Made by a program: the position numbers and the translations under genes | Origin: Candidatus Iainarchaeum sp. | GTDB taxonomy: Archaea; Iainarchaeota; Iainarchaeia; Iainarchaeales; GCA-2688035 | DNA length: 32,954 bases | NCBI GenBank assembly: GCA_017610175.1 | Contig: JAFCCO010000014.1 | Location: forward strand, 1-32,954 | Direction of reading: 5' to 3' | In this document: positions 1,719 through 32,685 of the stretch, one piece after another | Layout of the letters: each line of letters begins with the position of its first letter | How positions within the stretch are numbered: position 1 is the first letter of the stretch | Notes under the pieces: generated by a model | What the model was told of the DNA's origin: nothing | The model's input: the letters and a program-made list of their open reading frames with translations, nothing else | Databases searched by the model: none

Positions 1719-1724
1719 TTTGTT

Positions 1725-4897: not shown

Positions 4898-5245
4898 TTG
4901 CTTGATGTGATATTTTATTTGCAGGTTGCGTTCTTTGCCGTGCTTTTGCTTTACGGTTTTTGGAGCAAGTCGCCTGCTGTGTTTGCTTTGGCTGGTGTGT
5001 TTTCAATTTTAACCGGTGTAATGCTTGTTGGTGAAGGGCTTGACATTCCAACAGGGTATGAGATTTCTGGGGCGGATGATAATGTAATGCAGGTTTCTGA
5101 AACTTATTCGACTTACTTTACTTTTAATTCGGGTGCTGTGAATATGTGGCATTATGTTTTGTTGTATGGTGGGTTTGTTTGGTTGATTGTTGCGGCTGTG
5201 CTTGCTAAGAGAGGGCATGAGGTGGGTGTGGATGTTGGCGAGTAA
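4898..5245 (+). CDS. Small multi-TM virion/membrane protein
   Basis: Three hydrophobic segments; GAGGTG RBS before a TTG start. Confidence 0.8.
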   Translation: MLDVIFYLQVAFFAVLLLYGFWSKSPAVFALAGVFSILTGVMLVGEGLDIPTGYEISGADDNVMQVSETYSTYFTFNSGAVNMWHYVLLYGGFVWLIVAAVLAKRGHEVGVDVGE

Positions 5246-7874: not shown

Positions 7875-7906
7875 AAGGAAAATACACTAACGAGGTGAAT
7901 GTTTTT

Positions 7907-8407
7907 ATGAATGCGAAAAGGTTTTTGGTTGCGGTTGTGCTGTGCTTTGTTGTCGGAGGCGCAAGCTTGGCTGTTGCTGAGATAATGATTCCAGATGCCA
8001 CGCCAAGACAAGACCGTGTAATTGAAATTGACGCAAACACCGTAACGCAGATTAAAAGCTGGTACGTTGACGAACTTGGAATGAGGATTGACAACCTTAA
8101 CGCAGAGTTTGGAGAGCTTGCCTGCGACAATTCTGACAACAACTTTGCAAAATGTGCGTTTTCGGTTGAAAGTCCTATTTTGCACACAAGCCTTGAGATA
8201 GACAAATACAAGTGTGTTGATTTGAATGTTGAAACGAACCAGTGTATTACGTATGGGGAAAAGGATTTGGCTGAAAAGATTAAAAGCCAAAACGAGGCAT
8301 ACGAGGCAAAGCTTGACGAAATCAAAGAGGCAACAGAAATGCGACTAACCGCTTTACAAACTGCAGCGGCTGGAGCGGCCACAGTAACGGCTACGGAAAA
8401 AAAATAA
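7907..8407 (+). CDS. Secreted/membrane-anchored hypothetical protein
   Basis: GAGGTGA RBS, signal peptide, Cys pairs, C-terminal coiled coil. Confidence 0.8.
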   Translation: MNAKRFLVAVVLCFVVGGASLAVAEIMIPDATPRQDRVIEIDANTVTQIKSWYVDELGMRIDNLNAEFGELACDNSDNNFAKCAFSVESPILHTSLEIDKYKCVDLNVETNQCITYGEKDLAEKIKSQNEAYEAKLDEIKEATEMRLTALQTAAAGAATVTATEKK

Positions 8408-8435: not shown

Positions 8436-8723
8436 ATGGACACGGTAATAAAAGTAGATGTAAAAAAGGCAACAGTAATTGTTTTGTTAATAGTTGGCGC
8501 TTTTTTTGCAGGAGCTTTGGCAACAGAGCGCCAGTTTGAATTAGCTGAACTGCTTCAGCCAAAACAAATAAGCTTGAACGAGGCAGACAGAAACATTTTG
8601 ATAGCGGTTGGACAAATTGCAGCCTTAACAGAATGTCAAAAGCTTGGATTTGAAACAAGTTTTATTGTGAGTGATTTGAATGGAATGCAGGTTGCAACAA
8701 CCGTTTGTGTGGAGGAAAACTAA
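8436..8723 (+). CDS. Single-TM hypothetical protein
   Basis: GAGGTGA RBS; N-terminal TM segment. Confidence 0.8.
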   Translation: MDTVIKVDVKKATVIVLLIVGAFFAGALATERQFELAELLQPKQISLNEADRNILIAVGQIAALTECQKLGFETSFIVSDLNGMQVATTVCVEEN

Positions 8724-10726: not shown

Positions 10727-11161
10727 ATGGGGTACAAAGACAGCCGATCTGTGACATACGGTGACTTAGTGTTTAGGCATCTTGACAGGATGTCTGACTC
10801 GCTAAGTTCCGGAATGGATGTTGGAAAGCCAAACACAGCCTTGTTGACTTCTTACTATTTGCACATTCTTCACTTTCAAAGCATGTTAACAAAGTGTATC
10901 ACCGGAAGCAAACTGAAGAAAATAAGGACAATCAAAGCGCAGATTCCTGCGGTTGCAACAATGTATAATGGAAGCTTAAAGGACAGCATTGTTTTCTTAG
11001 AAGCCATAAGTGAATGGTTTGAAATCCTTTTAATTGTAGCAAGCGAGAGCAACGTTCTTTCAATGACTCCAAGAGCTTTTAACGATTACAACAATGATAC
11101 AATTGAGGAAATGAGTGCTTATGGTAACGAAGAAAGTGCCGACAGCTCTGCTAAATCATAA
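10727..11161 (+). CDS. Hypothetical protein
   Basis: ORF track; tiles the operon. Confidence 0.75.
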   Translation: MGYKDSRSVTYGDLVFRHLDRMSDSLSSGMDVGKPNTALLTSYYLHILHFQSMLTKCITGSKLKKIRTIKAQIPAVATMYNGSLKDSIVFLEAISEWFEILLIVASESNVLSMTPRAFNDYNNDTIEEMSAYGNEESADSSAKS

Positions 11162-12044
11162 AGACGCTTGGTTTTTTGTTCCAAATTGGAGGCGAATGCA
11201 CAACAAAAGACAGCAGTTTAACGCTGTTTTTGCGGGCCAGTGTGGAACGGGAAAGAGCTATGCAAGCCTTTCAACGGCTGAGTTGATGGACAGAGCGCCA
11301 AACGTTGAGGAAGAAACCCGTTTTTCGCTTGACAATGTTGCCTTTTCTTCGGGAGATTTTGCAAGGTTAACGAACAAAAAAACTCCAATTGGTGGCGCTA
11401 TTTTAATTGATGACGCTGCCTTTTCAGCGTACTCAAAGGATGCGATGACTCGTGAAGTAAAGCAGGTTGCGAAAATTTTCATTAGCCAGAGGCACAAGAG
11501 GCGGTGCATTCTTATTTCGCTTCCGGCTCTTGATATGCTTGCAAAGAACATCATGCAGACAATGCTTTACTATATTGAAATGAAGTCTATTGATTACCAC
11601 AAATCTATATCTTATGGAAAGCCTCATCAAATCATTTTGAACCCGAAGACTGGCAAGCTGTATTATAGATGGCTTACTCACTGGAGGAATGAGCGCCATC
11701 CTAAGTTTGGCTTCAGGAATTCGGTTGAGCTATACAGGCCTGATCTTTCGTTCTCTGTGCCTTCAAAGAACTTGCGTAGGGACTATGAAAAGTATCGTGC
11801 AGATGCTATGGCTTCTCATTATGAGGAAGCACAGCGCATTATTGAAAATAAGAAGGAAAAAAAGAGTACATTGGCTGACGCTTATAACGAAGTTAAGGCA
11901 AATGTAGAGCCTTTTTTGAATAAACGTAACCGTGTTGATGCTGGAAAGCTAATGTTGAAGGGTTTATCTGAGTATAAGGCTAAAAACATTGCTAAACTGC
12001 TTAATGATGAGAGGGATAGGGGGTTGAGTGAGATTATTGTATAA
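11115..12044 (+). CDS. P-loop ATPase, putative morphogenesis/packaging ATPase (Zot/B251-like)
   Basis: Walker A GQCGTGKS, Walker B ILIDDA, QRHKR motif. Confidence 0.85.
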   Translation: MLMVTKKVPTALLNHKDAWFFVPNWRRMHNKRQQFNAVFAGQCGTGKSYASLSTAELMDRAPNVEEETRFSLDNVAFSSGDFARLTNKKTPIGGAILIDDAAFSAYSKDAMTREVKQVAKIFISQRHKRRCILISLPALDMLAKNIMQTMLYYIEMKSIDYHKSISYGKPHQIILNPKTGKLYYRWLTHWRNERHPKFGFRNSVELYRPDLSFSVPSKNLRRDYEKYRADAMASHYEEAQRIIENKKEKKSTLADAYNEVKANVEPFLNKRNRVDAGKLMLKGLSEYKAKNIAKLLNDERDRGLSEIIV

Positions 12045-12908: not shown

Positions 12909-13046
12909 ATGGACTACAATATTGGATCAAAGCTTGACGATTTGATTGCTGGCGAGGTTGAAATAATTAAGCGCTTTGACAAATTAATTAAGCTTTCAGA
13001 AATGGACGTTGCTGTTGAAGACAAAAACGAGAAGGGGAAGGATTGA
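12909..13046 (+). CDS. Hypothetical protein (45 aa)
   Basis: Manual translation MDYNIGSKLDDL...; GGGGGTGA RBS; TTGA overlap with the next gene. Confidence 0.65.
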   Translation: MDYNIGSKLDDLIAGEVEIIKRFDKLIKLSEMDVAVEDKNEKGKD

Positions 13047-14143
13047 AGCTTTCCCCCTTCCTTATTTTTTTTGTGCTACTTTTTGTAGCCTTTGGCATAT
13101 ACTTTTTGCGGCCTGATTTTGTTGGAATGGACTCTTACGGACATTTACTTTTAACTTGTCAAAATAACAACGCAATGGGGGCTACTGGCATACCTTTTTT
13201 GCTGTTTGATGCCATTCCTTGTAATTTAATAGAACTCAAGATGCTTTTATTCTGCTGTGCTTTCGTTTCAGGGTGTTTCATAATCAAGATGGCTATGTTA
13301 TTCAGTAAAGAACACGGTTGGCGTGCGAGTTACCTGATTTTTTTGTCACCGGTTCTTGTTTTGGAGTTTTCAAAATTTGAAAATGATGCTTTTGCGTTTC
13401 CAATTCTGTTTGCTTCGCTGTACTTTTTCTTCAAGTCGCTTAAAGCAAACCCTGTGCTGAGAAAGGAAATGGTTTTGGCCCTTGCTCTTTTAATTCCGGC
13501 TGGGCTTTTGTGGAGTGGTTCTTGGTATTTTCTTGTTTCTTACTCGCTGAACTTTTTTTGGCTTGGATTAATTTCAGTTCCGGCCATTTTACTTTTTCGT
13601 AAATCTTTTGTTGGGGGAATTTTGCGAACTTCTCGCATTGCTGAAGATATGCCTTTTTTACTTCATGTTCATTGGGTTTTAATTCTTGGGTTTGCGGGGG
13701 TTATTCTTTCCCCCCTTTTGTTGCCACAGGCGGTGTTCTTTTTTGCAATGGGTTTGGCTTCTGCAAAGTTTTGGATACTTTCATTGCCTTTTTTAGTGTG
13801 CGGTGCGGTTTTGTTGCATGAACGTTTGAACAGCCCTTCCCTAAATACGATTGCGTTGGTTATTGCGCTGTTTGCAGTTGTTGGAACAGCTCAAAGCATT
13901 ATGCTTAACCCGCCAACTGAAAGCCACTGGCAAGCCCTTGAATTTGCTAACGAAATCTCTGACGGAAACTATGCAGCAGACTGGGGGTACGGCTACTGGC
14001 GGCTTTGGGCAGGCCACGACACAAACTCTTACGGAACGTTTTGGAAGCAAGAGGACTACAACGGAATGATTGCAGTTTCAGAACAGCCTCTTGGATGCCC
14101 ACAAATTAAACAATTTGGAAAAGTTGGTGTATGGCGTTGCTAA
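13043..14143 (+). CDS. Miniature STT3/AglB-like GT-C protein (putative oligosaccharyltransferase)
   Basis: GMDSYGH (~DPYYH), ENDAF (~DHD), ~11 TM segments, WQALEF, ADWGYGYW (~SWWDYGYW). Confidence 0.65.
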   Translation: MKLSPFLIFFVLLFVAFGIYFLRPDFVGMDSYGHLLLTCQNNNAMGATGIPFLLFDAIPCNLIELKMLLFCCAFVSGCFIIKMAMLFSKEHGWRASYLIFLSPVLVLEFSKFENDAFAFPILFASLYFFFKSLKANPVLRKEMVLALALLIPAGLLWSGSWYFLVSYSLNFFWLGLISVPAILLFRKSFVGGILRTSRIAEDMPFLLHVHWVLILGFAGVILSPLLLPQAVFFFAMGLASAKFWILSLPFLVCGAVLLHERLNSPSLNTIALVIALFAVVGTAQSIMLNPPTESHWQALEFANEISDGNYAADWGYGYWRLWAGHDTNSYGTFWKQEDYNGMIAVSEQPLGCPQIKQFGKVGVWRC

Positions 14144-15113: not shown

Positions 15114-15467
15114 TCACCTGTTCTTTAACACTCTTGAAATTCCCATCACCATCAAAACCGCAACCGTCAAAATCACCATGTCCAACATAAAGTTGAAGTA
15201 CGGGCCAAGCATTACATCCATTGCCGCAATCATTAGAACAGTTATTCCCAAAGTCGCTCCCATTGGAACTCTCGACTGCCACATAAAAACCGAAAACACA
15301 AGCAGCAAAATTATTGAAAAGAAAAACTCGTTGGAGAACGATCCACGAACAATGCAACCGCCTATGGCGTTTAAGTCAGAGTTGTTAAAGTCGCATCCGT
15401 TCAAGTCCATTGCAAGAGCAGAACCTGCAAAAAGCAAAAACATAAACAAAGCAATCAATCGTTTCAC
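15114..15467 (-). CDS. Membrane protein, putative virion component
   Basis: Signal peptide plus 3 TM segments; DxN motifs in the ectodomain. Confidence 0.8.
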   Translation of the reverse strand: MKRLIALFMFLLFAGSALAMDLNGCDFNNSDLNAIGGCIVRGSFSNEFFFSIILLLVFSVFMWQSRVPMGATLGITVLMIAAMDVMLGPYFNFMLDMVILTVAVLMVMGISRVLKNR

Positions 15468-15470
15468 GTT

Positions 15471-15926
15471 CTACCCTCTCCCCACAAACGACCACACTAT
15501 GGATAACAGATCACCCAAAATGTAAACCATTGCAATTACCTGAATTGCCATAATTATTCCCTGAATCATTATTGCAATTTGTGAAAGTCCAATTGGAACA
15601 AGCATTGAGTTCAAAAAGTTTATCCACCCAGACCCAATTATAGGGATCATTCCCCAAATTTCAACCATTCCTCCAACCGTTCCAAGAATTCCTTGAGCCG
15701 GATCGTCCCTTCGTTGAACGTCAATACTTTCAGTGTTTGCATCTGTTCCGGAAATAGTTCCACTTAATGAAACAAGAGCGTTTGAATCCAAGTCAGTGCT
15801 GTTTGGAATTGCTGAAATTCGACTTGCAAACCAAGCATCAGTCATCATAAAATCATACAAACCAGACAGGGCAAACAACATTATGAACAGCATATAAAAT
15901 GTGTCCTTAAATAGTGTATCAGCCAT
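15471..15926 (-). CDS. Membrane protein, putative virion component
   Basis: N- and C-terminal TM segments; follows the adhesin, as in spindle-shaped viruses. Confidence 0.8.
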   Translation of the reverse strand: MADTLFKDTFYMLFIMLFALSGLYDFMMTDAWFASRISAIPNSTDLDSNALVSLSGTISGTDANTESIDVQRRDDPAQGILGTVGGMVEIWGMIPIIGSGWINFLNSMLVPIGLSQIAIMIQGIIMAIQVIAMVYILGDLLSIVWSFVGRG

Positions 15927-18900
15927 TTATCCAGCACCCCGCCTATATAAAATTGCCGCAAACACAGCAAGCCCTGCCAAAGCAGTTAAAATTGGTGGAA
16001 CCCAATTCAAGTAAGTGAACATTGCCATCTCAATCATTACAATTATTCCAATCGCACTCATATCGGTTGTTAGCCCAACCCCAATTGCAACAACTGTTGC
16101 AATTATTATGAAAGAAGAAAGCATTAGCAAAAAAAAGCAAGGTTCTCCAGGCTCATTCATGCAGCCAAACTGCGACCTAAAAGCCGCACTGCTTAACTGA
16201 ATAACCAAATCGTTTGAACCAGCTCCGAAAACGTACAGTGAATAACTTGATTCCCTAATTAGCCCATTTTCAGTTTCAACAAAAACCGTTACAACAATTG
16301 GAGTTTCGTCAATTAGGCTTGCGTAAGGAATTGTAAAACCACAAGTTGTACCACAAGATTGGTTTGCGTCAATGTTTGAATCAAAAACGTTACTATATCT
16401 AATATAAGCCCAACTGCTTACAATTGTTCCGTTGGTGTCAATTGAAACATTTACATCACCACCGGTTGAACTGTATTCCAAATAACCCTTGCTTGGAACA
16501 ACTTGAATTGCAACATACTCCCAAGGAGGCGCTCTTTGAGTTATTTCAGTTGTGTCAAGATAAACATAATAACCAGTAAAATTTATTTTCAAAGACTTGG
16601 TGAACAAAAATCCACCATCTGAATCATAAAAATCAAAGTCATAATCGTTGTCAACCAAAAACGAAAGCGAAGCCGTTCCGGAATCGTCAGTTGCAACGCT
16701 TTGAACTTCAACACGGCCTTCTCCTGTAATTGATTTAAACGATTTGATTAAAATGTTTGGAACGGTTGACAAGTCAGAAGTGTCAAGAGTGTAAAACGCA
16801 GCAGTTATTCCGTCAACAGCCTTTGGCAAATACATTTGAATTACATCGGTTTGAGGCGCTCCCTTATAATTAATTTCGCGCTTTCGAGTAAGGTAAGTGT
16901 TTCCCCCGTTTAAGTCAAGCTGGTAATACGACAAAGTGTTTGGCAAAGCGTGGAAAAACACCGGAGCGGTTTTTCCCGAAAACGAAACGCTTCCAGTTCC
17001 CCTAACATCCAAATCAAACGGTGAAACAGCCGACAAGTCATCCTCATCCTTTGGAATTTCAAACTTTACAATAACCATATTGTAGTCGTAAACTTCGTAA
17101 TTGTTGTCGTATATTCTGAAAAAATAGTTTACATCCTGGTTGTTTACAAAGAACGAAACCTTTCCAGCAGAATCCGTTTGCCTTCTCTCTGAAACGTTTA
17201 CGTCAGGCAAACGCAGTTCAATAATTGTATTTGGTAAAATAGTTGTTCCCGGTGGATCGTAAAACATAAACTTATCAGTTTGGCCGTAAATGTCTTGCAA
17301 AAGCGTAACGTTTAAATCAATTACTGAAAACTGGTTTACGTCTTTCCAAAACCATTCACGGGTTGTGTACGTTCCAGAAGTTTCAGCCCTAATTGTATAA
17401 TCTGCCGTTGAAATGTTGTTCAAGTCCAAGTGCAAAAGCCCACTCGAAGTCGAGTCAGCCGAACCGTTTACAGTTAGCGTTCCAGGATCGATTGAACCGT
17501 GAGTGTTCTCATCCTTAAACATTAACTGCAACCGGCCTTCCTCAACAGCAAACGTTATGTTGGAGTCGTCAGTTATGTCATTTCCAAAAACGTCTGACCC
17601 AAACACCCGGTACGTTACCTCCCAGCTTCCAGCATAAGGCAGCAAAACATTTGCGTTCTGGTCGCTCGACTGCAACACATTGTTTCTATACCATTCAAAC
17701 GAACTCGTTGAAACGTTGTTGACATCGCTTGCATCGGAACCAGCAATTTGCACAACCACCTTTGAACCAGAAACAACCTGTGATCGAGCAAATGAAAAGT
17801 CTGCGTTCAAGTCAATGGTTTCAACCTCAAACGTTGCGTCACTGTCGTCATATTGAGAAAAAACGCTGTCAGCAATCTTTACAATAACCTTCCAATCTCC
17901 AAAGATTGCGGGAACCGTCCAAGAATAGTGGCAAATGTCTGAAACCGAAAAGTTGTTGGTGTCACAGAAAACCTCGCTCGAATCAGTGTTCACATCATCA
18001 ATTATTTCAACCGTTTCACCAGACTTAAAATAATTAATATCAATTAACAAAGTGTTGTCGACATCGCTTTGAACCTCAAAATTTATGTCAACCGTTTGCG
18101 AAACAATGAACACCTCGCCACCGTTCGGAGCCAAAACGTTTACGTCAATTCCTGAAAAAGTCTCCTGCACTCCGTAAGTCTGCAAGGCGCCCCGCTCTGA
18201 ATTATAAATAAGCAATGCTTCGTCATCAGACAGTTCCTTTGTAAAAAACTTCAATGTGTCAACCACCCCATCCAAAACTCCGCCTGTTGCCCCAACATTA
18301 AATTCAGAAATACTTCCACCGTCAATTGTTCCCCGTGGTTGGTTTAAAACGTTTCCGTCAACAGTTGAACCGTTTACATAAATCTTCATCCTGTTGTTTG
18401 AATTGCTATAAGTTGCAATCACATGATACCAAACGTTTGCGTCAAAAGTTTGCTTTGACGTAACCGCATTAGCCGTTCCATTTACTCCCTCAGTTGTTCT
18501 GAACATAATTCCAAGCTGGTCAGAAGCATCATAATCACGCCAACCTAAAGCAATATAGTTAGATGCAGCCAAATCCTTTTCAAAAAACAACTGCGTTGCG
18601 TTCTTCGTGTCATCCCAAACATTTGGCCGCTGTGCCCACAAAGAAAACGAAAACTCGTCATAGGTTCCAGTTGACATGAAAGTTGAAGAGCTTGAAAGAG
18701 AAGCCAAATAGCTTGTTGCGTTTGCGTGTTTTCCAACGACTCCCGGCCGCGTTCCAGCTCCATGAAGCAAAGCGTTTCCACCCGTTGCCCTGTTGTTCGC
18801 AATTGCCGAACTTGACGATTCGTTCATATCCCAAACCGTGTTATAGTCTGGTGTAAATGTTGCGTTTGAGTCAGCCAAAGGCGAAGCCGCCACATTCCCA

Positions 18901-19808
18901 TAATAAATATTAAAATTTATGTTTGCCGAAGCATCAAACGTGTCAGTTACCCGAACCCACGCAATCATATTTTGGTCAGAGTAATCCCAACGCTCTAAAT
19001 AAAACTCCAACAAAGCGGAATCGGTTCCGTCAACAAACCGAATGTCCTTTCCTGAAGGGTCAACAGTTAACCAAAAGTTCGTTTGCTCGGAGTTAAAGTC
19101 AACTAACACAACATGGTCTGTTGTAACGTTTCCAGAAAGCCAGGACGAAGTCTTTAATAAAATGTTCTTTTTAGCCCTCCAATTAGTGTCCCACCAATCC
19201 CACTCTGAAATCTCTTCTCCCAAAAATGTTGGAATCCAGTCAACGCTGTTCTCTCCCAAAACCGCTTTCTTCTTTCCCCAAACCCGCAGCCTGTAAGTTT
19301 CACCCTTTAAAGCTTTAAACCCATAAAAATTTCCAACCTTTTCCCAACGGCTTTCAACGTGGCTTCCACAAACCTTTCTAACGTTTCGAGAACAACTACA
19401 TTCACCTGCCACCTTTCCATCAACGCAACCTATACTCAAGCAAGAACTCTGATTCAAGTCACCAAAACCAAATGTAAAATATTCCAGCTCAATGCAGTAA
19501 TCGTTCACTTGAAAGGAACGCTCTTTAAAAACGTCAACTCCAAAATCCTGCAACCCAGGCGACTTAGCCGAACGCTTTGCAACATCAAAACCAAACTGTG
19601 AATCGTTCTGCAAAGAAACGGTTCTATTAAAACTCTCCGCACTCAAGTCCCACTCAATCCACGCCTCACAGTCTACAAGGCAGGAATCTGTGTTTGACAA
19701 AAGAGTAAAACGGCTGTTGCCAATGTTTTTAACGTCCAAAGTGGCAGCCGCGTAGCTAACCAAAAAGAGCGTGAAAAACGCTACTGCTAAGTAGGCAAAT
19801 CGCTTCAT
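15927..19808 (-). CDS. Large membrane-anchored adhesin/terminal-fibre protein with DUF2341, LamG/concanavalin-like and Ig-like domains
   Basis: Signal peptide; DIRFVD..LLEFYLERWD..AWVRV..IYYGN (DUF2341); FSFSLW..WYHVIATY..KIYVNG (LamG); 3 C-terminal TM segments. Confidence 0.88.
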   Translation of the reverse strand: MKRFAYLAVAFFTLFLVSYAAATLDVKNIGNSRFTLLSNTDSCLVDCEAWIEWDLSAESFNRTVSLQNDSQFGFDVAKRSAKSPGLQDFGVDVFKERSFQVNDYCIELEYFTFGFGDLNQSSCLSIGCVDGKVAGECSCSRNVRKVCGSHVESRWEKVGNFYGFKALKGETYRLRVWGKKKAVLGENSVDWIPTFLGEEISEWDWWDTNWRAKKNILLKTSSWLSGNVTTDHVVLVDFNSEQTNFWLTVDPSGKDIRFVDGTDSALLEFYLERWDYSDQNMIAWVRVTDTFDASANINFNIYYGNVAASPLADSNATFTPDYNTVWDMNESSSSAIANNRATGGNALLHGAGTRPGVVGKHANATSYLASLSSSSTFMSTGTYDEFSFSLWAQRPNVWDDTKNATQLFFEKDLAASNYIALGWRDYDASDQLGIMFRTTEGVNGTANAVTSKQTFDANVWYHVIATYSNSNNRMKIYVNGSTVDGNVLNQPRGTIDGGSISEFNVGATGGVLDGVVDTLKFFTKELSDDEALLIYNSERGALQTYGVQETFSGIDVNVLAPNGGEVFIVSQTVDINFEVQSDVDNTLLIDINYFKSGETVEIIDDVNTDSSEVFCDTNNFSVSDICHYSWTVPAIFGDWKVIVKIADSVFSQYDDSDATFEVETIDLNADFSFARSQVVSGSKVVVQIAGSDASDVNNVSTSSFEWYRNNVLQSSDQNANVLLPYAGSWEVTYRVFGSDVFGNDITDDSNITFAVEEGRLQLMFKDENTHGSIDPGTLTVNGSADSTSSGLLHLDLNNISTADYTIRAETSGTYTTREWFWKDVNQFSVIDLNVTLLQDIYGQTDKFMFYDPPGTTILPNTIIELRLPDVNVSERRQTDSAGKVSFFVNNQDVNYFFRIYDNNYEVYDYNMVIVKFEIPKDEDDLSAVSPFDLDVRGTGSVSFSGKTAPVFFHALPNTLSYYQLDLNGGNTYLTRKREINYKGAPQTDVIQMYLPKAVDGITAAFYTLDTSDLSTVPNILIKSFKSITGEGRVEVQSVATDDSGTASLSFLVDNDYDFDFYDSDGGFLFTKSLKINFTGYYVYLDTTEITQRAPPWEYVAIQVVPSKGYLEYSSTGGDVNVSIDTNGTIVSSWAYIRYSNVFDSNIDANQSCGTTCGFTIPYASLIDETPIVVTVFVETENGLIRESSYSLYVFGAGSNDLVIQLSSAAFRSQFGCMNEPGEPCFFLLMLSSFIIIATVVAIGVGLTTDMSAIGIIVMIEMAMFTYLNWVPPILTALAGLAVFAAILYRRGAG

Positions 19809-19832
19809 TGGTTATTTTCCTCCACGAAACTC

Positions 19833-20093
19833 CTACTGAAAGTACTGCGGACCTTCAGGCTCTCTGAAACTTCTGTAAACGTGGTACAAAAGCATTACCC
19901 CAAGCACCAACGGAATCAGCTGCACCAAAACCTTCGTAGTAGCCCCATACGGGAACGCATCAGCGTTTCCAATCAATGAATACAACGGGTTTTGAAGTGG
20001 ATCGTACATTGCTAACGCTACATACAACAGCATGAATCCAATTGGAGCTTCAATTATTGCTCCCCAATTCACCATGTTAATCCATTCCTCCAA
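19833..20093 (-). CDS. Two-helix hydrophobic protein, possible minor capsid protein (VP3-like MCP paralog)
   Basis: Two TM helices; GATTKVLVQLIPLVLGVMLL resembles MCP helix 2. Confidence 0.55.
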   Translation of the reverse strand: MEEWINMVNWGAIIEAPIGFMLLYVALAMYDPLQNPLYSLIGNADAFPYGATTKVLVQLIPLVLGVMLLYHVYRSFREPEGPQYFQ

Positions 20094-20179
20094 TTAATTT
20101 TTTTGCCATTCATTCTATTACCTACTTTTTTGCAACCCCAATAGGGGGGCAGCTTTACTGTAAAGCCCTTTCACAGGCT

Positions 20180-21031
20180 TCACAGCACAACTGCGAATAT
20201 GTATATGCTGATTGCGATCACTACACCAGCCACAACTAAACCCAACATCATCGGGCCAGACAATTGGTCTTTTGCTGCCAAGTACCCTGCTGCAATAAAC
20301 AGGAACAAAGCCGCCAAAGCCAACTCAGTCAACAACGCAATATTGTATGCATCACTGTCTGCGGTGTGGAGCAATCCCACTGTCGCTTCCGTGTTTCCGA
20401 TTCCATCTGTCGTATAGTAACACACTGTGTGTTCTCCAAACGATAGACCAAATGGAGCAGTATATGTTGAATAGTTCGGTGCGCATTTACCCTGTCTGCT
20501 TTCACTGTACTGTGTCACAACATTTCCACCATTTGCATCAGTTCCGTAACCCACGCAGGTTGGAACTAACGTTACAACATCGTTTGAAATGGTGTGTTCT
20601 GTGTCACAAGCGTTTGTGTCGATGTAAACTGTGGTCGTTGTCATTGCGTTTGCGTCATCAATGGTTGTTATGTCATAGACATTAACATCGATGTGATAGT
20701 TTGCATCCAATCCCGTTGGCAGAGTCCAGGTGTAAGAACACCCTTGTGCTGTTGAACTCAACGGAAGAGAACAAAAATCCATCGAATTTCCGTCAACAAT
20801 CTCTGTTTTCAGTGTGTCAGAACAACTTACGCTGTCTGTGCAATATGCAATCACAATGTTTGCATCTTCTGGATCGTCAGCGTCAGCAACAGTGAAGTCA
20901 ATGGTAGTCGTTGCAGAAGGATAGTAGTAGTTTCCATCAGTCACAAGATTTACAACTGTGGGATCAGCCGCAAAAGCAAAACTTGCTATTAACAGAAACG
21001 ATAGAATTACCGCTATTTTCTTATCGAACAT
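20180..21031 (-). CDS. Secreted, C-terminally anchored Ig-like/Thr-rich surface protein
   Basis: GGAGGTGA RBS; signal peptide; 2 C-terminal TM segments; 8 DxN motifs. Confidence 0.85.
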   Translation of the reverse strand: MFDKKIAVILSFLLIASFAFAADPTVVNLVTDGNYYYPSATTTIDFTVADADDPEDANIVIAYCTDSVSCSDTLKTEIVDGNSMDFCSLPLSSTAQGCSYTWTLPTGLDANYHIDVNVYDITTIDDANAMTTTTVYIDTNACDTEHTISNDVVTLVPTCVGYGTDANGGNVVTQYSESRQGKCAPNYSTYTAPFGLSFGEHTVCYYTTDGIGNTEATVGLLHTADSDAYNIALLTELALAALFLFIAAGYLAAKDQLSGPMMLGLVVAGVVIAISIYIFAVVL

Positions 21032-21285: not shown

Positions 21286-24200
21286 CTAAAAAGCAAAAGG
21301 CCAAGCCTTGCCCTTCCCTCCTCCTTTCTTTCTTTTATGCTTTTTCTTCTTTCGTTTAGAAGGCTTCAAAGCAAGAGCCTCCAAGCCCTTTAAAGTAATT
21401 CCCGCATACTCTCCAGGTTCGTCAATTCCATACTTTGATTTTTCAACCATTGCCCCTTTCAAAACCCTTGACTTTGGCAACCTAAACATTTTTTCCCAAC
21501 CTTTCGGCAAAGAAGGTGCTTTTGCCTTCTTACCTCTTTTCTTAGAAGGAATAACTCTCATTGATCTTGCAGGAGTTCCAATTGCAACACTTGCCGCAAA
21601 CTGCCTGGCAACCTCTTTATAAGTTGCGGGAGAAACATCAATCCATTTTCCTCGCCTGCGAACCTGTCCAATAAAACTTGGCTTACGTTTTCTGCGCTTT
21701 CCTCTACTCTTTTGTTTTGAATAATCATCCATATACGGTGAAGGAATCTTTGAATAAAACGGGTAAGGGTAAGGCGAAGTGTACGGACTTGAATACGGTG
21801 AACTGTAAGGCGATCTATAAGGTGAAGTGTAAGGCGAACTATAAGGTGAACGGTAAGGAGATTTGTAAGGTGATTGATACGGTGAACGGTAAGGAGATTT
21901 ATACACCGACTTTGAAGGAGAAATATAAGAAGAAACAATGCTTGGGTACGGTGAACTATACCTTGAAACACTTTTGCTTGGACTGCTAACAACTGAAGGG
22001 GAAGAAACATAAGAAGATGCAACTGAAGAAACAAGGCTTTCATTGTAAGAACTTGCACTGGTTATTTTTCTCAAAGCACTTGAAGCAGAAGATTTTGCAA
22101 CACTCGACACCGCAAAAGGAACAAACACCGTTGAAGCAACGCTTGAAATTGCCTTGCTTGGACTCATATAAACAGAAGCGCTTGGAACATACGCTGATCC
22201 ACTACGAGAAACAACCTCTGAAATAGAACGCCCCACCTTCCTTGAATAATAACTACTTGGATAACTTGAAACCTCAACCGTCTTTCCAACCGAAGGCTTT
22301 ACAGAACCCGCTCCTGCAACTGGAGAAAGCCCAACCTTATACAATTGAATCATTTGATACCGACTACCTAAAGGAGAAGACTCCCAAAGGCGAGTTAACA
22401 ATTTGCTCTTAGTAACAAAAACAGGCGCTTGCAATGTTTCCTTAAAAAAGCCATAACCCAAATACTTTTCCTTTGTAAGAAAAGAACCAGCAAAACCACC
22501 AGGAGGCGCCCAAGCCTGAGTCGCAGCAGTTGCAACAGTATGCTGGCCTTCAACACTTGCACCAAGCAAGTTCATTGGATCAACCTGTTTAATTCCAGAC
22601 TTACCCCACCAAGTTTTCAAAGAAGGAATAAGCCCCTTGCCAGACCGAATCTTAGTATAACCCAAAACACTTTGTTCCAAATATGCTTTGCCAGTTGCAG
22701 GAAGCAACTGAATTTGCCCTGAAGAACCTGAATATCCTTTACCCGCTCCAATGTACCCTCCATAAATTCGGTAAAGCTCTGGATCTTTTGGAGGAGGCGC
22801 ACTAAAATAAAAAGGCTGATGCCCCAAACTACTGCGCAAACCCATAGCCTCCCCTGGTTGATAAGTCAACAAAGTAGTCTTAGAAGACTTTCCCAACTCA
22901 CCAAAAGCAGTTTTAACCTGCCCACTTTTAAGCTTTGAAAAGAAACGAGAAGCACGGCCTGGAAAAAGGTTTGCATAACTTGCGTGTGCGCCAGAAGTTT
23001 TCTGCCCAACTAAAGACTTTAACTGTCCAGGCGTTTGTTCAACAGTATAACTTGGAACAAGCTCTATCCTTTCAGCGCCACGATAAGCTCCCAAAAACTT
23101 TCTGTCAAGCACACCCTTTGTAATGCGAGAACTGATTCTTGTTCCGGGAAACTTAAAAGCAGTAACAAGCCCAACACCTCCAGCAACAAGCCTTGCCATT
23201 TCAGCCTTGCCTGCCTTTCCATCCAAATAAGGATAATGTTCTGCCGGTAATGTTCCAATCTCAAGCTTTGTAGGTTGTTCAAAAGTCAAAATAGTTTTAA
23301 AAAAAGGCTTTGTTTTTACAGCTTTGCGGCCAGTGAAAAAAGAAACAACCGGATTCACAACAGGATCAGCAAAACCAAAACCCAATTCAACAGGTGTTTT
23401 AAAAACAGTTTTTTGTTCCTTCTCAATTATTGAAGGCATATTGCCCCAAAACTGTTTGTAATATTGCACATTCTGCCTTGCACCCTCAATAGAAGGAGGC
23501 GGGTGCAAATCCAAACCAACAGACTTCAAAGCCTCTGTTCCAGTTTCATAAGCAAAACCAACCCCATAAGAAGCTGCTCCAAAAATAGTTCCCTGAACAC
23601 CTCCAGCAATGCCTCCGGAAATACCTCCAAGCGGGCCACCAATTGAACCAAGCCCTGCTCCAATCAAACCCCAAGAACCAGCAGACGTTCCAACGTGCCG
23701 AGAAATCACACCAGCATCAAGCGGAAACTGTGAAACATAACCCGGCTTTCCACCAATCTTTGAAACCAAAGGCGGCTTTCCAGTTCTCGGATCAGTCATC
23801 CACATAGAATCAGCCTCTTTTGCAAACTTATATTTAGACTGAGCAACATCCTCCCAACCAGCAAAATGCTCACCAACAACAGGCGGGCCTACCAGCTCTT
23901 CCCGCTCAACAACCCTTGCAGACATCTCCTTAGCAGAACGCAAACCTGCTCCAGGATCAGTTGAAAAACTTGACCGAGTTGAAGACGGTGCAACAAACGT
24001 AGAAGTTTTTTGAGTCGGAGGAAACTTTGAAACCTTAGCAGCAGCAATCTGTGCCTCCTTTCCAGAAATTTCAGCCATGTCATTATAGCGAGAAATTCCA
24101 CGATTCAACTCAAGAGAAGCTTTTTTATAAGCCGCAACTCGCTCATTATAACCTCGAATAGAAGCTGTTGGAGAACGCCCCGCAGCAATATCAGCCTCAA

Positions 24201-24717
24201 GCCTTTCACGAGAAGCCACAAGCCCTTCCCTTTGCACTTCTAAATCTTTACTCTCAGACTTAATCTGTTCACCAACAGCACGCAACTTTTCAACATTAGT
24301 AGTAAAAGTTTTAGTAGCCTGATATACCCCGCCTTCAAAATGTTCAGGCCGCACACGCTGAGAAGTAGAAACTCCAATCTCCTGAGAAATACGCCTTGCC
24401 TCAAGCTCAGAAAAACCACGCTTTAACAAAGCCTCCTTCAAAGTTGGCGCACCCGCAACATCAGAACGCAACTCCTCCGCAGGAATATCCTTAATCGAAG
24501 AAAGCAACCGAACCTTTGAAGAAACACTACCCCCCTCTTTCCCACCAACAAAACCACTTGAACCAACTCCACTGCTCGGAGTCCAACCCGCTTGTCTTGG
24601 ATCACCATAATAAGCTCGGCCCTGAGTTTGTTCATACGCTTGAGCGTGTCTAAAAGAAGTAGCCTGCCTACTTTCCTGCCTGGCACTCATCTCATCTGCA
24701 CGCTCACGAGAAACCAT
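21286..24717 (-). CDS. 1143-aa low-complexity virion protein (coiled coil, Gly-zipper, Ser-rich region, SPYx repeats, basic tail); possible internal/DNA-delivery protein
   Basis: ORF track; domain pattern read from composition; function is an inference. Confidence 0.8.
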   Translation of the reverse strand: MVSRERADEMSARQESRQATSFRHAQAYEQTQGRAYYGDPRQAGWTPSSGVGSSGFVGGKEGGSVSSKVRLLSSIKDIPAEELRSDVAGAPTLKEALLKRGFSELEARRISQEIGVSTSQRVRPEHFEGGVYQATKTFTTNVEKLRAVGEQIKSESKDLEVQREGLVASRERLEADIAAGRSPTASIRGYNERVAAYKKASLELNRGISRYNDMAEISGKEAQIAAAKVSKFPPTQKTSTFVAPSSTRSSFSTDPGAGLRSAKEMSARVVEREELVGPPVVGEHFAGWEDVAQSKYKFAKEADSMWMTDPRTGKPPLVSKIGGKPGYVSQFPLDAGVISRHVGTSAGSWGLIGAGLGSIGGPLGGISGGIAGGVQGTIFGAASYGVGFAYETGTEALKSVGLDLHPPPSIEGARQNVQYYKQFWGNMPSIIEKEQKTVFKTPVELGFGFADPVVNPVVSFFTGRKAVKTKPFFKTILTFEQPTKLEIGTLPAEHYPYLDGKAGKAEMARLVAGGVGLVTAFKFPGTRISSRITKGVLDRKFLGAYRGAERIELVPSYTVEQTPGQLKSLVGQKTSGAHASYANLFPGRASRFFSKLKSGQVKTAFGELGKSSKTTLLTYQPGEAMGLRSSLGHQPFYFSAPPPKDPELYRIYGGYIGAGKGYSGSSGQIQLLPATGKAYLEQSVLGYTKIRSGKGLIPSLKTWWGKSGIKQVDPMNLLGASVEGQHTVATAATQAWAPPGGFAGSFLTKEKYLGYGFFKETLQAPVFVTKSKLLTRLWESSPLGSRYQMIQLYKVGLSPVAGAGSVKPSVGKTVEVSSYPSSYYSRKVGRSISEVVSRSGSAYVPSASVYMSPSKAISSVASTVFVPFAVSSVAKSSASSALRKITSASSYNESLVSSVASSYVSSPSVVSSPSKSVSRYSSPYPSIVSSYISPSKSVYKSPYRSPYQSPYKSPYRSPYSSPYTSPYRSPYSSPYSSPYTSPYPYPFYSKIPSPYMDDYSKQKSRGKRRKRKPSFIGQVRRRGKWIDVSPATYKEVARQFAASVAIGTPARSMRVIPSKKRGKKAKAPSLPKGWEKMFRLPKSRVLKGAMVEKSKYGIDEPGEYAGITLKGLEALALKPSKRKKKKHKRKKGGGKGKAWPFAF
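21760..21905 (-). repeat. Degenerate 12-bp coding tandem repeat encoding (S-P-Y-x)n
   Basis: SPYRSPYQSPYKSPYRSPYSSPYTSPYRSPYSSPYSSPYTSPY. Confidence 0.9.
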
Positions 24718-26937: not shown

Positions 26938-27326
26938 AGTTCCTTAAAGAGTGGGAATACCTCCAACATATTGAAATGTGCGGAGGCGCACTAAAAATAA
27001 TCGCGCCCTATGGAATAAACTCAATTGTTTTAAAGCACCTCTTTAGAAATTCTGGAGGTCTTCCAGTAAAAATTATTTCTCAATCAAAACAACCGCTTCT
27101 TGAATCACACGGTTTTGAAATTAGAACTTGGAGTAATATGCATGCCAAACTATTTCTCGGAACAAACGGCGCGATATGGGGTAGCTGGAATTTCAATATG
27201 CAGCATCAGCGCAAATCAACACTGCGAGAAATTGTTGAGTACTGCCAAAAAAACGAACCAAAATATGAAGCGCTCAACAACCAATTCAACTACTATTGGG
27301 AACAATGTGCAGGGTGGCAAAAATGA
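26934..27326 (+). CDS. Single-domain phospholipase D (PLD)-superfamily protein, putative nuclease
   Basis: IIAPY...MHAKLFLG....WGSWNF. Confidence 0.72.
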   Translation: MKFLKEWEYLQHIEMCGGALKIIAPYGINSIVLKHLFRNSGGLPVKIISQSKQPLLESHGFEIRTWSNMHAKLFLGTNGAIWGSWNFNMQHQRKSTLREIVEYCQKNEPKYEALNNQFNYYWEQCAGWQK

Positions 27327-29476
27327 TTCCAAAACATCTTGACGGCTACAAGTTTATTAAAGTTGTTGCCGACAGCAAGCGGCCTCTTGAACCTGATTGG
27401 CAGAACACAAAAAACTATTCTATTGATTCTGAAGAGCTGAAAAACCACATTGAATGCGGAGCAAACTATGGTGTTATCGGCGGCAACGGAAAAATAATAA
27501 TTGACATCGACCGCAAGTCGCCCGACTTTGAAGAAGTTGTCAAAGCCGCAAAGACGTTGCCAAAAACTTTTGAGGTAAGCACAGCAAACTTGGGACACCA
27601 CCTTTACTACAACTGCGAAAACGGGAAAGGAACCCGCATGAACAACGAAGCCGGAGAAGTGCGCGCAAAAGGAATGATGGTTGTTGGCCCTGGAAGCAAA
27701 CTTGGAGCAAAAGAATACAAGGTTGTTGCAGACATTCCAGTCGCAACCGTAACAATGGAACAGGTTCGCGAATCATTCAAAAAATGGATTGGGGAAACAA
27801 CTGTTGAAAAAGTTAAAACAAAAAAGCCAACCGACACAACCCGAAGCGGAAAAGAGTGGGGCATCCTATGTAAAATGATTGAAAGTGGAAAAAATAAAGA
27901 GTTCATATTTGAAAAGATGAAAATGTATTCAAAGTGGAGCGAAACGGGTGACAAATATAAAGAACACCAATACAAAAAGGCGTGCGAAAAGATTCAAAGT
28001 AAAAGAGCGTTAAAGCTTGAAGAGATTGAAAACAAGTATGATTTGAAAGACCTTTCCTTAAACGTTATTACAAAAATTGCGTGCAACAAACGTTCGGAAG
28101 CAACCGAGGCAATTGTTGAAGAGATAAAGGCACAGGAACACATTTACACAACACGGGACGATGAAAAGAACGAGGTTTGGATTTACCGCGAAGGCATCTA
28201 CGTTTCCGAAGCAAAAACATTCATTAAAGAAATATGCCGAAAGATACTGGGGAGCGCGTACTCAACTTCCCTGTCAAGCGAAGTCATTGCAAAAATTGAA
28301 ACAGACACCTACATAAACCAGGACGAATTCTTTGAAGTCAAAAACATTGACGTTGTGGTTGTTGAAAATGGGATTCTAAATATTCACACGCGGGAGATGC
28401 GGCCGTTCAACCCTGAAGAAATCTTCTTCAACAAGCTTCCAATAACATATGACTTGGAAGCCGTTTGCCCTGCAACTGAAAAACACTTTGAAACCGTTCT
28501 CAAAAACAAAGAGGACAAGCCGGTAATGGAGGAACTGTTCGGCTACCTACTGCTCAAAGAATACCGCTACGAGAAAGCGTTCATGCTAATTGGAACAGGC
28601 CGAAACGGAAAAGGAAAAACAATGGCCTTAATGAAACGGTTCATTGGAATTGAAAACTGCGCCAGCATTCCATTACAGCAGTTTGAAACAGACAACTTTT
28701 CGCACGGGGAACTATTCAAAAAGATGGCTAACCTTGCCGGGGACGTTGACAACCGAGCGCTAAAGCACACCGGCTCCCTCAAAACGCTGACGGGGCGAGA
28801 TCTAATAAGCGCCGCAAGAAAGTTTCTGCCAAGAGTTCACTTTGTAAACTATGCCAAAATGGTGTTTGCAGCAAACCAGTTGCCAATAACTCACGACATA
28901 ACCCCTGCGTTCTTCATGCGGTGGATTCTGTTAGAGTTTCCGTTTACGTTTTTGACAGAGGAAGAGATTCTGAAAAGAAACCCGGAAGACCGGGAAGGCT
29001 GCAAAGTCAAGGATCCAGAGATTGTTGAAAAGATTACAACGGAGGATGAGTTAAGCGGGCTTTTGAACCTGGCGCTTGACGGCCTCAAAAGGTTGGTGAA
29101 GCAAAAGAACTTCAGCTACACCAAAAGCAATGACGAGGTTAAGACAATGTGGATTAGGAAAAGCGACAGCTTCTCAGCTTTCCTAATGGACGAGGTTGAG
29201 GAAGAGTATGACGCGCGCATTGTAAAGCAGGAGTTGCGCAGGGCCTACTCGATTTACTGCAAAGACCACAAGCTCAAAGGGGTTGGTGACAAATCCATCA
29301 AGTATGTGTTGACTTCAACAATGGGGGTTTCTGAAGAAAGAGAACGTTCAATGGATGATTTAAAGTATTACTGGTGGGGTATTAAGTTCAAAAAGGAAAG
29401 AAAGTTAGGGGATTATTCTTACAAAGAAGTAGTTGATAAACAAAAAAAGATTGTAGGAATTGGACAGGGTGGTTAA
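27323..29476 (+). CDS. Primase-polymerase fused to a D5/P4-family SF3 helicase
   Basis: N-terminal NYGV..IIIDID..TANLGHHLYY (prim-pol); VENGILN, GTGRNGKG Walker A, FAANQLP, FFMRW. Confidence 0.93.
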   Translation: MIPKHLDGYKFIKVVADSKRPLEPDWQNTKNYSIDSEELKNHIECGANYGVIGGNGKIIIDIDRKSPDFEEVVKAAKTLPKTFEVSTANLGHHLYYNCENGKGTRMNNEAGEVRAKGMMVVGPGSKLGAKEYKVVADIPVATVTMEQVRESFKKWIGETTVEKVKTKKPTDTTRSGKEWGILCKMIESGKNKEFIFEKMKMYSKWSETGDKYKEHQYKKACEKIQSKRALKLEEIENKYDLKDLSLNVITKIACNKRSEATEAIVEEIKAQEHIYTTRDDEKNEVWIYREGIYVSEAKTFIKEICRKILGSAYSTSLSSEVIAKIETDTYINQDEFFEVKNIDVVVVENGILNIHTREMRPFNPEEIFFNKLPITYDLEAVCPATEKHFETVLKNKEDKPVMEELFGYLLLKEYRYEKAFMLIGTGRNGKGKTMALMKRFIGIENCASIPLQQFETDNFSHGELFKKMANLAGDVDNRALKHTGSLKTLTGRDLISAARKFLPRVHFVNYAKMVFAANQLPITHDITPAFFMRWILLEFPFTFLTEEEILKRNPEDREGCKVKDPEIVEKITTEDELSGLLNLALDGLKRLVKQKNFSYTKSNDEVKTMWIRKSDSFSAFLMDEVEEEYDARIVKQELRRAYSIYCKDHKLKGVGDKSIKYVLTSTMGVSEERERSMDDLKYYWWGIKFKKERKLGDYSYKEVVDKQKKIVGIGQGG

Positions 29477-29765: not shown

Positions 29766-29983
29766 TGGAATTTTATAATTTAATTTTGTTTGCTTTTGCG
29801 GTGTTGGCTTTTTTTGTTTTGGTGTTTTTTTCAAGTGTGGGTGCTGTGGAAATGGGTGGAATTATTGGGGTTGTTATTTTGATGGGTGGTGCTTCTATTG
29901 CGGTTAATTTTGCTTTTTCTGTTAAGTTGTGGGATAAGTTGAAGTGTATTGAGGAAAAGGTTGAGGAGGCGAAGGGCGAATGA
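29762..29983 (+). CDS. Small 2-TM protein ending EAKGE
   Basis: ORF track. Confidence 0.7.
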   Translation: MMEFYNLILFAFAVLAFFVLVFFSSVGAVEMGGIIGVVILMGGASIAVNFAFSVKLWDKLKCIEEKVEEAKGE

Positions 29984-30168
29984 ATGGCAGTTTAACGTTG
30001 GGGCAGTATATTGCGGTTGGTTTGTTGTTTGTTACACTTGGTGGTGTGTTGTATTGGGGTTTTACTTTAGATATTAGGGGTTTGAATGGTGCGTTTGTTT
30101 CATTTGTTCTTTTTTGTGTGTTTGCTTTGATTAGTTCGCCAGATAAAGAGGAGGCGAAGGGCGAATGA
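29980..30168 (+). CDS. Small 2-TM protein ending EAKGE
   Basis: ORF track. Confidence 0.7.
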   Translation: MNGSLTLGQYIAVGLLFVTLGGVLYWGFTLDIRGLNGAFVSFVLFCVFALISSPDKEEAKGE

Positions 30169-30347
30169 ATGATTTTTTTGTTGCTTGTTTGTTGGTTTTT
30201 GCTGGGGGGGTTGGTTTTTATTTGGGTTGGGGGTGTGGAAGAGTTTCTGCTTTTAAGGAGGCGTTGGGGGTTACTGAGAAGTTTAAGGAACGTTTGGATG
30301 CGATTGTTGAAAGAAAGTCTGCTGAGAAGGAGGCGAAGGGCGAATGA
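30165..30347 (+). CDS. Small single-TM protein ending EAKGE
   Basis: ORF track. Confidence 0.7.
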   Translation: MNDFFVACLLVFAGGVGFYLGWGCGRVSAFKEALGVTEKFKERLDAIVERKSAEKEAKGE

Positions 30348-32683: not shown

Positions 32684-32685
32684 AG

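Follow-up and report, generated by a model that had tools for sequence, protein, structure and literature searches.

Introduction

To our knowledge, N-glycosylation is the only widespread chemistry performed on asparagine outside the cell. Oligosaccharyltransferases (OSTs) of the WWDYG type read a serine or threonine two residues after the acceptor (+2), as seen in OST structures, and an arginine of PglB reads an acid two residues before it (-2); the Campylobacter-type sequon of PglB is D/E-X1-N-X2-S/T. Here we analyze a stretch of DNA from Candidatus Iainarchaeum sp. (contig JAFCCO010000014.1 of assembly GCA_017610175.1, 32,954 nucleotides, hereafter the window) whose exported proteins are rich in the pattern Asp-x-Asn (DxN, where x is any residue). 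The window is one whole contig (C3) of a 1.24-Mb, 34-contig genome bin of Iainarchaeota, a DPANN lineage, which we call G000. Its first 114 nucleotides (1-114) recur exactly as a direct repeat at its end (32841-32954), and the contig is therefore a closed circle of 32,840 bp. Surface proteins encoded on the circle bear the same signature as those of the host lineage. Judged from sequence, DxN is most likely a short linear motif placed on a particular class of exported proteins, where it probably marks a site, not described before, at which the cell surface is modified or loaded.

The closest described systems resemble this pattern in part. Like the PglB sequon, DxN has Asp at -2, disfavors proline at both X positions and lies on exported proteins and flexible linkers, where some copies read D-x-N-x-T. 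Unlike the PglB sequon, it is followed by Ser/Thr at +2 in only 104 of 370 cases and almost never takes Glu at -2; moreover, the organism is an archaeon, and its own OST, AglB, resembles eukaryotic STT3A around WWDYG. A DXNXS site is described for Cel9A of Cytophaga hutchinsonii (PMC10202324). The canonical archaeal sequon, N-X-S/T, is matched by an AglB gene and an AglH-like family 4 glycosyltransferase (GT4) gene that stand side by side in the host, and NxS/T is mildly enriched in the main adhesin of the window. It does not describe the 72% of DxN that lack Ser/Thr at +2, nor a 283-residue protein with eight DxN and no such Ser/Thr.

In Halobacterium salinarum, a 1998 paper reportedly found that the serine of the Asn-2 site of the S-layer glycoprotein could be replaced without loss of glycosylation. 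We know of no Asp at -2 rule for this site and of no transferase assigned to it. Two N-glycans are described on this protein, the second added by a separate route with a different glycan and carrier (PMC11407970); the word 'sequon' does not occur in the main text of that paper. It sets a precedent for two archaeal N-glycosylation routes acting on one protein, but it concerns a single site in a distant lineage.

Asp and Asn two residues apart also serve as calcium ligands, as in cadherin DxNDN, EF-hand-like DxDxDG and FG-GAP/dockerin DxNxDG sites. DxN is similar in that its two side chains could ligate one cation and in that it occurs on extracellular adhesion proteins. The continuations of these loops are nevertheless missing: Asp or Asn stands at N+2 in only 33 of 369 sites and Gly at N+3 is at 0.4 times expectation, unlike in EF-hand-like, DxDxDG and DxNxDG loops, and Asp directly follows Asn, as cadherin would have it, in only 6 of 369 (0.2 times). 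DxN also lies inside strands, and exchange of Asp for Glu or of Asn for Asp is almost absent. Ice-binding and surface-binding β proteins display flat Thr/Asx arrays (T-x-T, T-x-N). They share with DxN a two-residue repeat on exposed strand faces, and homologues from outside Iainarchaeota often have S/T-type pairs, whereas DxN lacks the regularity of a solenoid and is also found in disordered linkers. Archaeal cannulae assemble in a calcium-driven manner (PMC12518558), as described in a paper in which Iainarchaeota appear only as a tree label. In a full-text literature search, which did not extend to supplementary glycosite tables, no DxN bias or sequon was reported for archaeal surface proteins, and the exact phrases for a DxN motif led, by the search listing, to enzyme active sites or lectins.

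DxN is in excess in the exported proteins of the window

We translated the open reading frames (ORFs) of the window and obtained the expected number of DxN in each protein from 2000 whole-protein shuffles. The 1293-residue exported adhesin encoded at 15927-19808 (- strand) has a signal peptide, DUF2341 and LamG domains (PF10102, residues 253-319, 48.3 bits; PF13385, residues 383-530, 53 bits; both over cut-off), an Ig-like domain and C-terminal membrane segments. It contains 31 DxN against 7.2 expected, a number reached in none of the 2000 shuffles. An earlier inspection of the letters alone (the sequence-only reading) had counted these 31, nine of them with Ser/Thr at +2, against roughly 8 expected; our recount agrees exactly, and the shuffles bring the expectation down slightly. 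The total number of Asn in the adhesin is 88, and NxS/T is present 21 times against 15.1 expected.

This excess survives correction for composition. The z score of the adhesin is about 9.3-9.8 overall, and it remains 9.3-9.6 when residues are shuffled only within 40- or 20-residue blocks, which keeps the local composition. Among all 400 i,i+2 residue pairs, DxN is the most enriched, while the neighbors of the pattern are flat (observed/expected: NxD 5/7.4, DN 3/7.2, DxxN 8/7.0, DxD 9/8.6, NxN 4/6.0), and DxxxN is likewise at or below expectation. Because the control pairs are flat and the signal survives block shuffling, we rejected amphipathic strand periodicity and local richness in Asp and Asn as its explanation.

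Other exported proteins of the window show the same excess. In the 283-residue, C-terminally anchored protein at 20180-21031 (- strand), which has one copy of the Ig-like domain, 8 of the 14 Asn belong to DxN (1.3 expected; z = 6.2-6.8, the lower value under block shuffles), and none of the eight has Ser/Thr at +2, as had been counted by hand before. The 895-residue secreted protein at 5187-7874 (+ strand) has 13 DxN against 6.2 (p 0.008), and the eight previously noticed near its N-terminus fall within residues 54-159 (nucleotides 5346-5663). Five small ORFs, with 2-3 DxN each against 0.2-0.7 expected, bear out the remark that small membrane proteins follow suit: a 117-residue membrane protein (15114-15467, - strand; 3 against 0.29, in 13 residues right after the signal peptide), a 366-residue polytopic membrane protein (13043-14143, + strand; 3 against 0.33, in the C-terminal tail), a 95-residue membrane-anchored protein (8436-8723, + strand; 2 against 0.17), a 170-residue exported protein (7895-8407, + strand; 3 against 0.68) and a 151-residue membrane protein (15471-15926, - strand; 2 against 0.35, in a polar loop). 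The primase-helicase at 27296-29476 (+ strand; Prim-Pol, D5_N, DUF5906), a cytoplasmic control that was said to have essentially none, has 0 against 1.7, and the DnaA-like ORF 11115-12044 has 0 against 0.96.

The pattern is restricted to the coding frame. In ten enriched genes GAYNNNAAY is found 206 times in frame, 1 and 21 times in the other two sense frames and 1-7 times in the antisense frames, and the choice of Asp and Asn codons within DxN equals the gene background. The signal therefore belongs to the proteins, and we rejected a cause at the DNA level. A single repeated domain was rejected as the source as well, since each protein has only 1-2 copies, and a diversity-generating retroelement, whose variable regions are rich in Asn codons, was dropped because the sites span whole proteins and are conserved between homologues.

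The signature extends across Iainarchaeota

Exported surface proteins of Iainarchaeota have DxN at 4-6 times expectation and the reversed NxD at 0.8 times. To assign host proteins to classes we used a crude ORF call (longest non-overlapping ORFs of at least 70 codons) and a hydropathy rule (Kyte-Doolittle), under which the 824 cytoplasmic ORFs of G000 contain 352 DxN against 387.9 expected (0.91). Across genomes, cytoplasmic DxN is at 0.87-0.91 of expectation. ExN, with Glu in place of Asp, is at 0.95-1.16 of expectation. The excess in G000 comes from large non-cytoplasmic proteins on other contigs, about a dozen in number, among them those starting at C22:20057 (48 against 8.0), C11:123 (24 against 6.1), C19:2402 (14 against 2.4), C22:28032 (29 against 9.9), C4:3497 (16 against 3.5) and C22:6621 (15 against 3.9). 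The enriched class comprises adhesin-like, Ig-like, LamG, pilin-like and small anchored proteins, which are acidic and poor in Lys (3-4%).

In the densest of these proteins (C22:20057-23473, L077:57-3473; 1138 residues), 47 of the 48 DxN lie within the first 850 residues. It ends in a Cys-rich module and a putative PGF-type C-terminal anchor, a motif recognized by eye, which points to processing by an archaeosortase, as in S-layer glycoproteins of other archaea. A P-type cation ATPase (Cation_ATPase_N, Cation_ATPase_C) is encoded amid the DxN-rich surface genes of the same contig (C22:12694-15366, - strand; L076).

We compared two further genomes. G001, a complete genome in a single contig (1.2 of 1.24 Mb covered), comes from another family of the same order. 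Here DxN numbers 272 against 170.0 in signal-anchored ORFs and 302 against 343.4 in cytoplasmic ones, and the top cases are 19 against 3.4 in 432 residues and 11 against 1.9 in 286 residues. G006 belongs to a third family and has 24.6% GC (0.80 of 0.84 Mb covered). Its exported class as a whole is flat (236 against 234.3), but its five most enriched ORFs (11 against 2.6 to 20 against 8.5) are all non-cytoplasmic, so that we did not keep it as a clean negative control within the phylum.

A DxN excess of 2.6-5.2 times is seen in each of ten homologues of the adhesin with 30-41% identity, nine of which have at least 3.7 times. Two distant LamG relatives lack the excess (12 against 8.0 and 5 against 4.9), which argues that DxN is not a property of the LamG/DUF2341 families. 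Domain-level matches to the adhesin are found in 7 of 151 genomes of the phylum, G000 included (6 of the 150 others), and the C-terminal anchor module used as a probe in a word-based search gave one match.

The Ig-like domain, about 115 residues long and common to the enriched proteins, reaches further. A profile built from its DxN-rich copies finds 975 representative proteins at E<=0.001. Among the best 149 of these, 130 have at least twice the expected DxN (5335 against 1300.5; NxD 1023), 4 are intermediate and 15 are neutral (194 against 216.9), the rich and neutral groups being defined by DxN itself. Of 30 proteins whose sources were looked up, six have source labels: the two enriched ones are labeled Iainarchaeum and Diapherotrites, and the four neutral ones Nanoarchaeota, Elusimicrobiota (two) and Thermoproteota, a comparison with outgroups that covers one domain family rather than whole proteomes. 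Within the phylum the profile matches 85 of the 151 genomes sampled and 22 of the 29 families. At 28 loci from 28 genomes and 12 families the longest frames contain 923 DxN against 207.9 expected (NxD 161), with 26 of the 28 at three times expectation or more. DxN is thus a surface-protein signature of the phylum, or at least of the order, that extends far beyond the window. The sequence-only reading had suggested such a bias in Iainarchaeota surface proteins, and our counts agree with it; the bias fits an Iainarchaeota host for the circular element.

The motif is directional, strict and maintained

To describe the surroundings of the motif we pooled 369 sites from 18 enriched proteins of G000 and G001, in which 370 of 1352 Asn have Asp at -2. 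The middle residue is typically L, V, G, A, T, I or F; it is never K (0/369), and R, D and P are at 0.1-0.2 times expectation (D 0.1 times; P in 3/369, 0.2 times). The position after Asn is usually V, S, A, I, T or Y, with D in 6/369 and P in 6/369 (0.5 times). At N+2, K is again absent (0/369), R and P are depleted, and D (17) and N (16) are at 0.6 times each. Asp is often preceded by I, V or P, and hydrophobic residues recur at -1, +1 and +3. Ser/Thr at N+2 follows 28% of the DxN sites against 19% of the other Asn (186/982; Fisher p 3.5e-4).

No two sites are less than four residues apart, where about 15 such cases would be expected, and sites cluster at spacings of 6-12 residues. Linkers contain tandem copies: residues 186-303 of G001 ORF 603378, an acidic linker, have 13 DxN against 2.1; a Pro/Thr linker (residues 168-238 of the G000 protein at C4:3497) has 6 against 0.9, four of which read D-x-N-x-T by eye; and an Ala-rich N-terminal stretch of the protein at C30:9739 has 5 against 0.8. 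In G001 ORF 225770 and window ORF 15114-15467, tandem copies occupy the tether that follows right after the lipobox or signal peptide. Counted over polar segments only, non-cytoplasmic ORFs have 280 DxN against 198.8 and cytoplasmic ORFs 115 against 130.3.

Individual sites are conserved. The adhesin and its paralogue on contig C19 of G000 align over 512 columns at 42% identity; the sites they share make up 9 of 12 and 9 of 14, with a variable middle residue. Across 11 homologues the DxN pair is kept in 999 of 2152 comparisons (46%), against 14% for generic i,i+2 pairs, 35% for other Asp and 24% for other Asn. At the same time, 49 of the 105 distinct sites are present in one sequence only, so that sites are both maintained and newly gained, a picture of purifying selection combined with turnover.

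Asp-then-Asn is added to the Ig-like fold

The Ig-like β-sandwich domain of the adhesin (residues 552-664, nucleotides 17817-18155, - strand; HMM E 6.8e-34) has five DxN. A first AlphaFold2 attempt on 461 residues with an 11-row alignment reached a predicted local confidence (pLDDT) of 57 and was usable only as 'all-beta', whereas residues 545-670 with a 31-row alignment gave a nine-strand sandwich at pLDDT 91.5. A Foldseek search with the latter returned 276 PDB chains at E<=0.001, all of generic Ig-like fold (best TM score 0.53). The domain has no Pfam family at E<=1, and a profile of the whole adhesin family found only weak LamG-type matches among solved structures. In the model, strands contain four of the five DxN (model residues 11-13, 30-32, 46-48 and 61-63); the fifth is in a loop. 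Given this location and the hydrophobic neighbors on either side, Asp and Asn probably both face solvent, an orientation deduced from the alternation of residues rather than read from coordinates.

Aligning 240 copies of the domain from enriched proteins and 63 from neutral proteins to one profile identifies nine position pairs at which D..N occupies 28-81% of the enriched copies and 0-20% of the neutral ones (0-3% at six of the nine). Neutral copies mostly have S, T, G, A, V, Y or D at these positions. Pooled over the nine pairs, D..N fills 1138 of 2098 cells (54%) in the enriched group, against 770 if Asp and Asn were independent. Other pairs account for at most 1.6% each (D..D 34, N..T 33, D..S 32), and the conservative exchanges are rare (E..N 3, or 0.1%; D..Q 3; N..D 20). 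Among the 515 cells of the neutral group, 12 are D..N, and S/T-type pairs such as S..T mostly stand in its place, which indicates that the Ig-like fold does not need the pair. As the alignment and the model have it, the Iainarchaeota lineage wrote Asp-then-Asn onto predicted exposed positions of this domain.

Candidate modifying enzymes

G000 encodes one full-length STT3/AglB of 699 residues with WWDYG and a DxxK-like stretch; a profile from G000 and G001 has the consensus 'wwdqg' at the WWDYG site. The C-terminal part of this protein aligns best to eukaryotic STT3A, a match that concerns the WWDYG region only. The Glycos_transf_4 (AglH-like GT4) gene directly follows aglB. Relatives of this AglB occur at 43 loci with identities up to 72%, most of them labeled Candidatus Iainarchaeum or Diapherotrites, and the neighborhoods of aglB at 42 Iainarchaeota loci contain few surface proteins. 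A short paralogue of 462 residues (C26:6396-7784, - strand; L129:1396-2784) has RWDVG in place of WWDYG and keeps the N-terminal catalytic-type motif; we rejected it as a general candidate, since the part of G001 covered (1.2 of 1.24 Mb) contains no counterpart of it.

PMT_2-like GT-C proteins, several on the G000 chromosome and one on the element, are a further group of transferases. The one on the element belongs to a glycan cassette (1023-3387, + strand) made up of a GtrB-like GT2 (1023-1718), a methyltransferase (1725-2210) and the PMT_2-type GT-C (2188-3387). This cassette may be a modifying enzyme set and is given here as context; nothing found ties it, AglB or the other transferases to DxN. 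Its layout is reminiscent of phage serotype-conversion modules that alter host surface glycans.

What might read DxN

The one-way order, the strictness of Asp and Asn, the exclusion of K, R and P, the minimum spacing, the tandem copies in linkers, the occurrence on unrelated folds (LamG/DUF2341, the Ig-like domain and pilin-like proteins) and the combination of conservation with gain all make DxN resemble a site that is read by a machine. As N-glycosylation is a widespread chemistry of asparagine and Asp at -2 is a determinant in bacteria, we rank a sequon for asparagine modification first: DxN may be a lineage-specific recognition site for the modification of extracellular Asn, to which we give a probability of roughly 40%. 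The canonical core of N-glycosylation, AglB beside Glycos_transf_4, is encoded and counts in its favor. On this reading DxN would be read from N- to C-terminus by a machine outside the membrane, most likely an enzyme that modifies Asn, for example by N-linked glycosylation that depends on Asp at -2 and treats Ser/Thr at +2 as optional. The proteins of the element would thereby be decorated as the host's own surface is. The enzyme could be the single AglB or a GT-C (PMT_2-like) transferase of the host or the element. In a more specific and more tentative form, Asp-x-Asn without Ser/Thr could be a distinct Iainarchaeota sequon, served by an AglB with unusual acceptor rules or an unrecognized transferase such as a GT-C, and plasmids or viruses of the lineage would copy this code onto their own surface proteins.

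Several observations weigh against Asn modification. AglB keeps WWDYG, looks canonical and is predicted to need Ser/Thr at +2, which 72% of DxN lack, and Glu at -2 is not used. A 115-residue domain can have as many as nine sites, and the 1138-residue protein has 48, so that modification would have to be very heavy. Nor does the excess extend to housekeeping exported proteins or to all extracellular sequence: when the loops of 178 polytopic membrane proteins (G000 and G001) are pooled, those on the outside have 30 DxN against 25.8 and the inside loops 30 against 27.1, with sides assigned by the positive-inside rule, a crude topology call; AglB itself has 0 against 1.2; four giant paralogous surface proteins (C13:115763-149075) have 3-6 against 7.8-9.8; and a 1166-residue secreted protein (C13:104935-108435) has 0 against 6.3. 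Some surface proteins may thus avoid the pattern. The flat loops, AglB and the depleted surface proteins indicate that DxN is not selected on exported sequence generally and belongs to one class of exported proteins. The enrichment described by the sequence-only reading, and its confinement to exported proteins, hold after correction for composition; polytopic loops show no bias, and several large surface proteins are depleted. Its suggestion of an alternative glycosylation sequon remains the most economical reading, with the intact WWDYG and the 28% of sites with Ser/Thr as its weak points.

The main rival, which we consider less likely, is that DxN forms a cation-binding or polar-ladder surface. 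Arrays of Asp and Asn on the outer faces of both sheets of Ig-like domains would bind Ca2+ or Mg2+ or pair across antiparallel strands, making the proteins stiffer, forming a lattice or attaching them to mineral or host surfaces. DxN in strands with hydrophobic residues at -1, +1 and +3 would place Asp and Asn on the same solvent face; Lys is absent at x and N+2 and depleted at most nearby positions, in proteins that are acidic and Lys-poor throughout; and the P-type cation ATPase lies among DxN-rich genes. Cadherin DxNDN and legume-lectin sites use Asp/Asn ligands at i,i+2. Against such a surface, the pair is stricter than known cation sites (E..N 3, D..D 34 and N..D 20 beside 1138 D..N in 2098 cells), acids are depleted beside the motif (0.1 times at x, 0.2 times at N+1), the EF-hand and cadherin continuations are missing, and Foldseek returned generic Ig folds and no calcium-binding analogue. 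A symmetric ladder does not explain why Asp precedes Asn across unrelated folds and unstructured acidic linkers. Calcium-dependent assembly of archaeal surface filaments is documented (PMC12518558) and speaks for a role of cations. The metal-binding turn of the sequence-only reading thus does not hold as a turn, with four of the five DxN of the modeled domain inside strands and others in linkers, and metal binding itself is retained only as this rival.

Direction, strictness, linkers, conservation and the limitation to one exported class would equally suit a site for another factor, such as a protease or ligase at the surface, a chaperone for export or assembly, an anchoring factor or a binding partner on a host cell. 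That the class consists of adhesin-, pilin- and Ig-like proteins would fit a dedicated pathway. We consider such a factor improbable: no candidate was identified, and nine sites per domain, many of them inside strands, are hard to square with cleavage or ligation. Least credible is a by-product of descent or composition, whereby a few conserved DxN spread with one expanding domain family, or surfaces shifted toward Asp and Asn, and the pair has no function. Many enriched proteins do have the Ig-like domain or the C-terminal anchor module, and the profile that collected homologues was built from DxN-rich copies. However, the Ig-like domain covers only 5 of the 31 adhesin sites, and enrichment is also found on LamG and pilin-like proteins and on linkers without detectable homology. 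The z score of 9.3-9.6 under block shuffles, the coupling of Asp to Asn (1138 against 770) and the 49 singletons among 105 sites largely exclude this explanation.

If Asn modification is correct, DxN would represent a new acceptor rule for glycosylation or other Asn chemistry in a DPANN phylum that has not been cultured and that depends on other cells by way of its cell surface, and the specificity of the transferase would be useful for glyco-engineering. Whatever the mechanism, DxN marks exported proteins of one functional class and ties extrachromosomal elements such as the 32.8-kb circle, from protein sequence alone, to Iainarchaeota hosts. As a simple statistic, it can also be calculated for every secretome, to locate the onset of the trait and a gene that appears together with it.

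Organization of the circular element

The element may be a plasmid or a virus. Beside the block of exported proteins and the glycan cassette it encodes the Prim-Pol/D5-type primase-helicase, the DnaA-like protein and an integrase-like fragment. No capsid gene was recognized in the window, and a search of IMG/VR found no relatives of the 1293-residue adhesin. The adhesin paralogue on contig C19 (42-43% identical) lies beside a homologue of ORF 13043-14143, so that C19 is a piece of a second such element.

The ORF that adjoins the DxN-rich genes at 21286-24717 (- strand, 1143 residues) has no Pfam or PHROG match; its composition is highly unusual, with 1.9% Asp, 0.9% Asn and 8.7% Lys, and no Cys. 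Two families of repeated leaders end in start codons. A G-rich 33-mer occurs four times (153-185, 344-376, 892-924 and 32656-32688) before small ORFs near the junction of the circle, and an AGGAGG-containing 38-mer occurs three times (29964-30001, 30149-30186 and 30328-30365) at a spacing of about 180 nucleotides, each copy before one of three tandem small ORFs. Both families look like shared promoter or ribosome-site cassettes. The sign of the GC skew flips near 13-14 kb and again near 25-27 kb, tracking the switch in gene orientation, and the cumulative skew peaks at about 13 kb.

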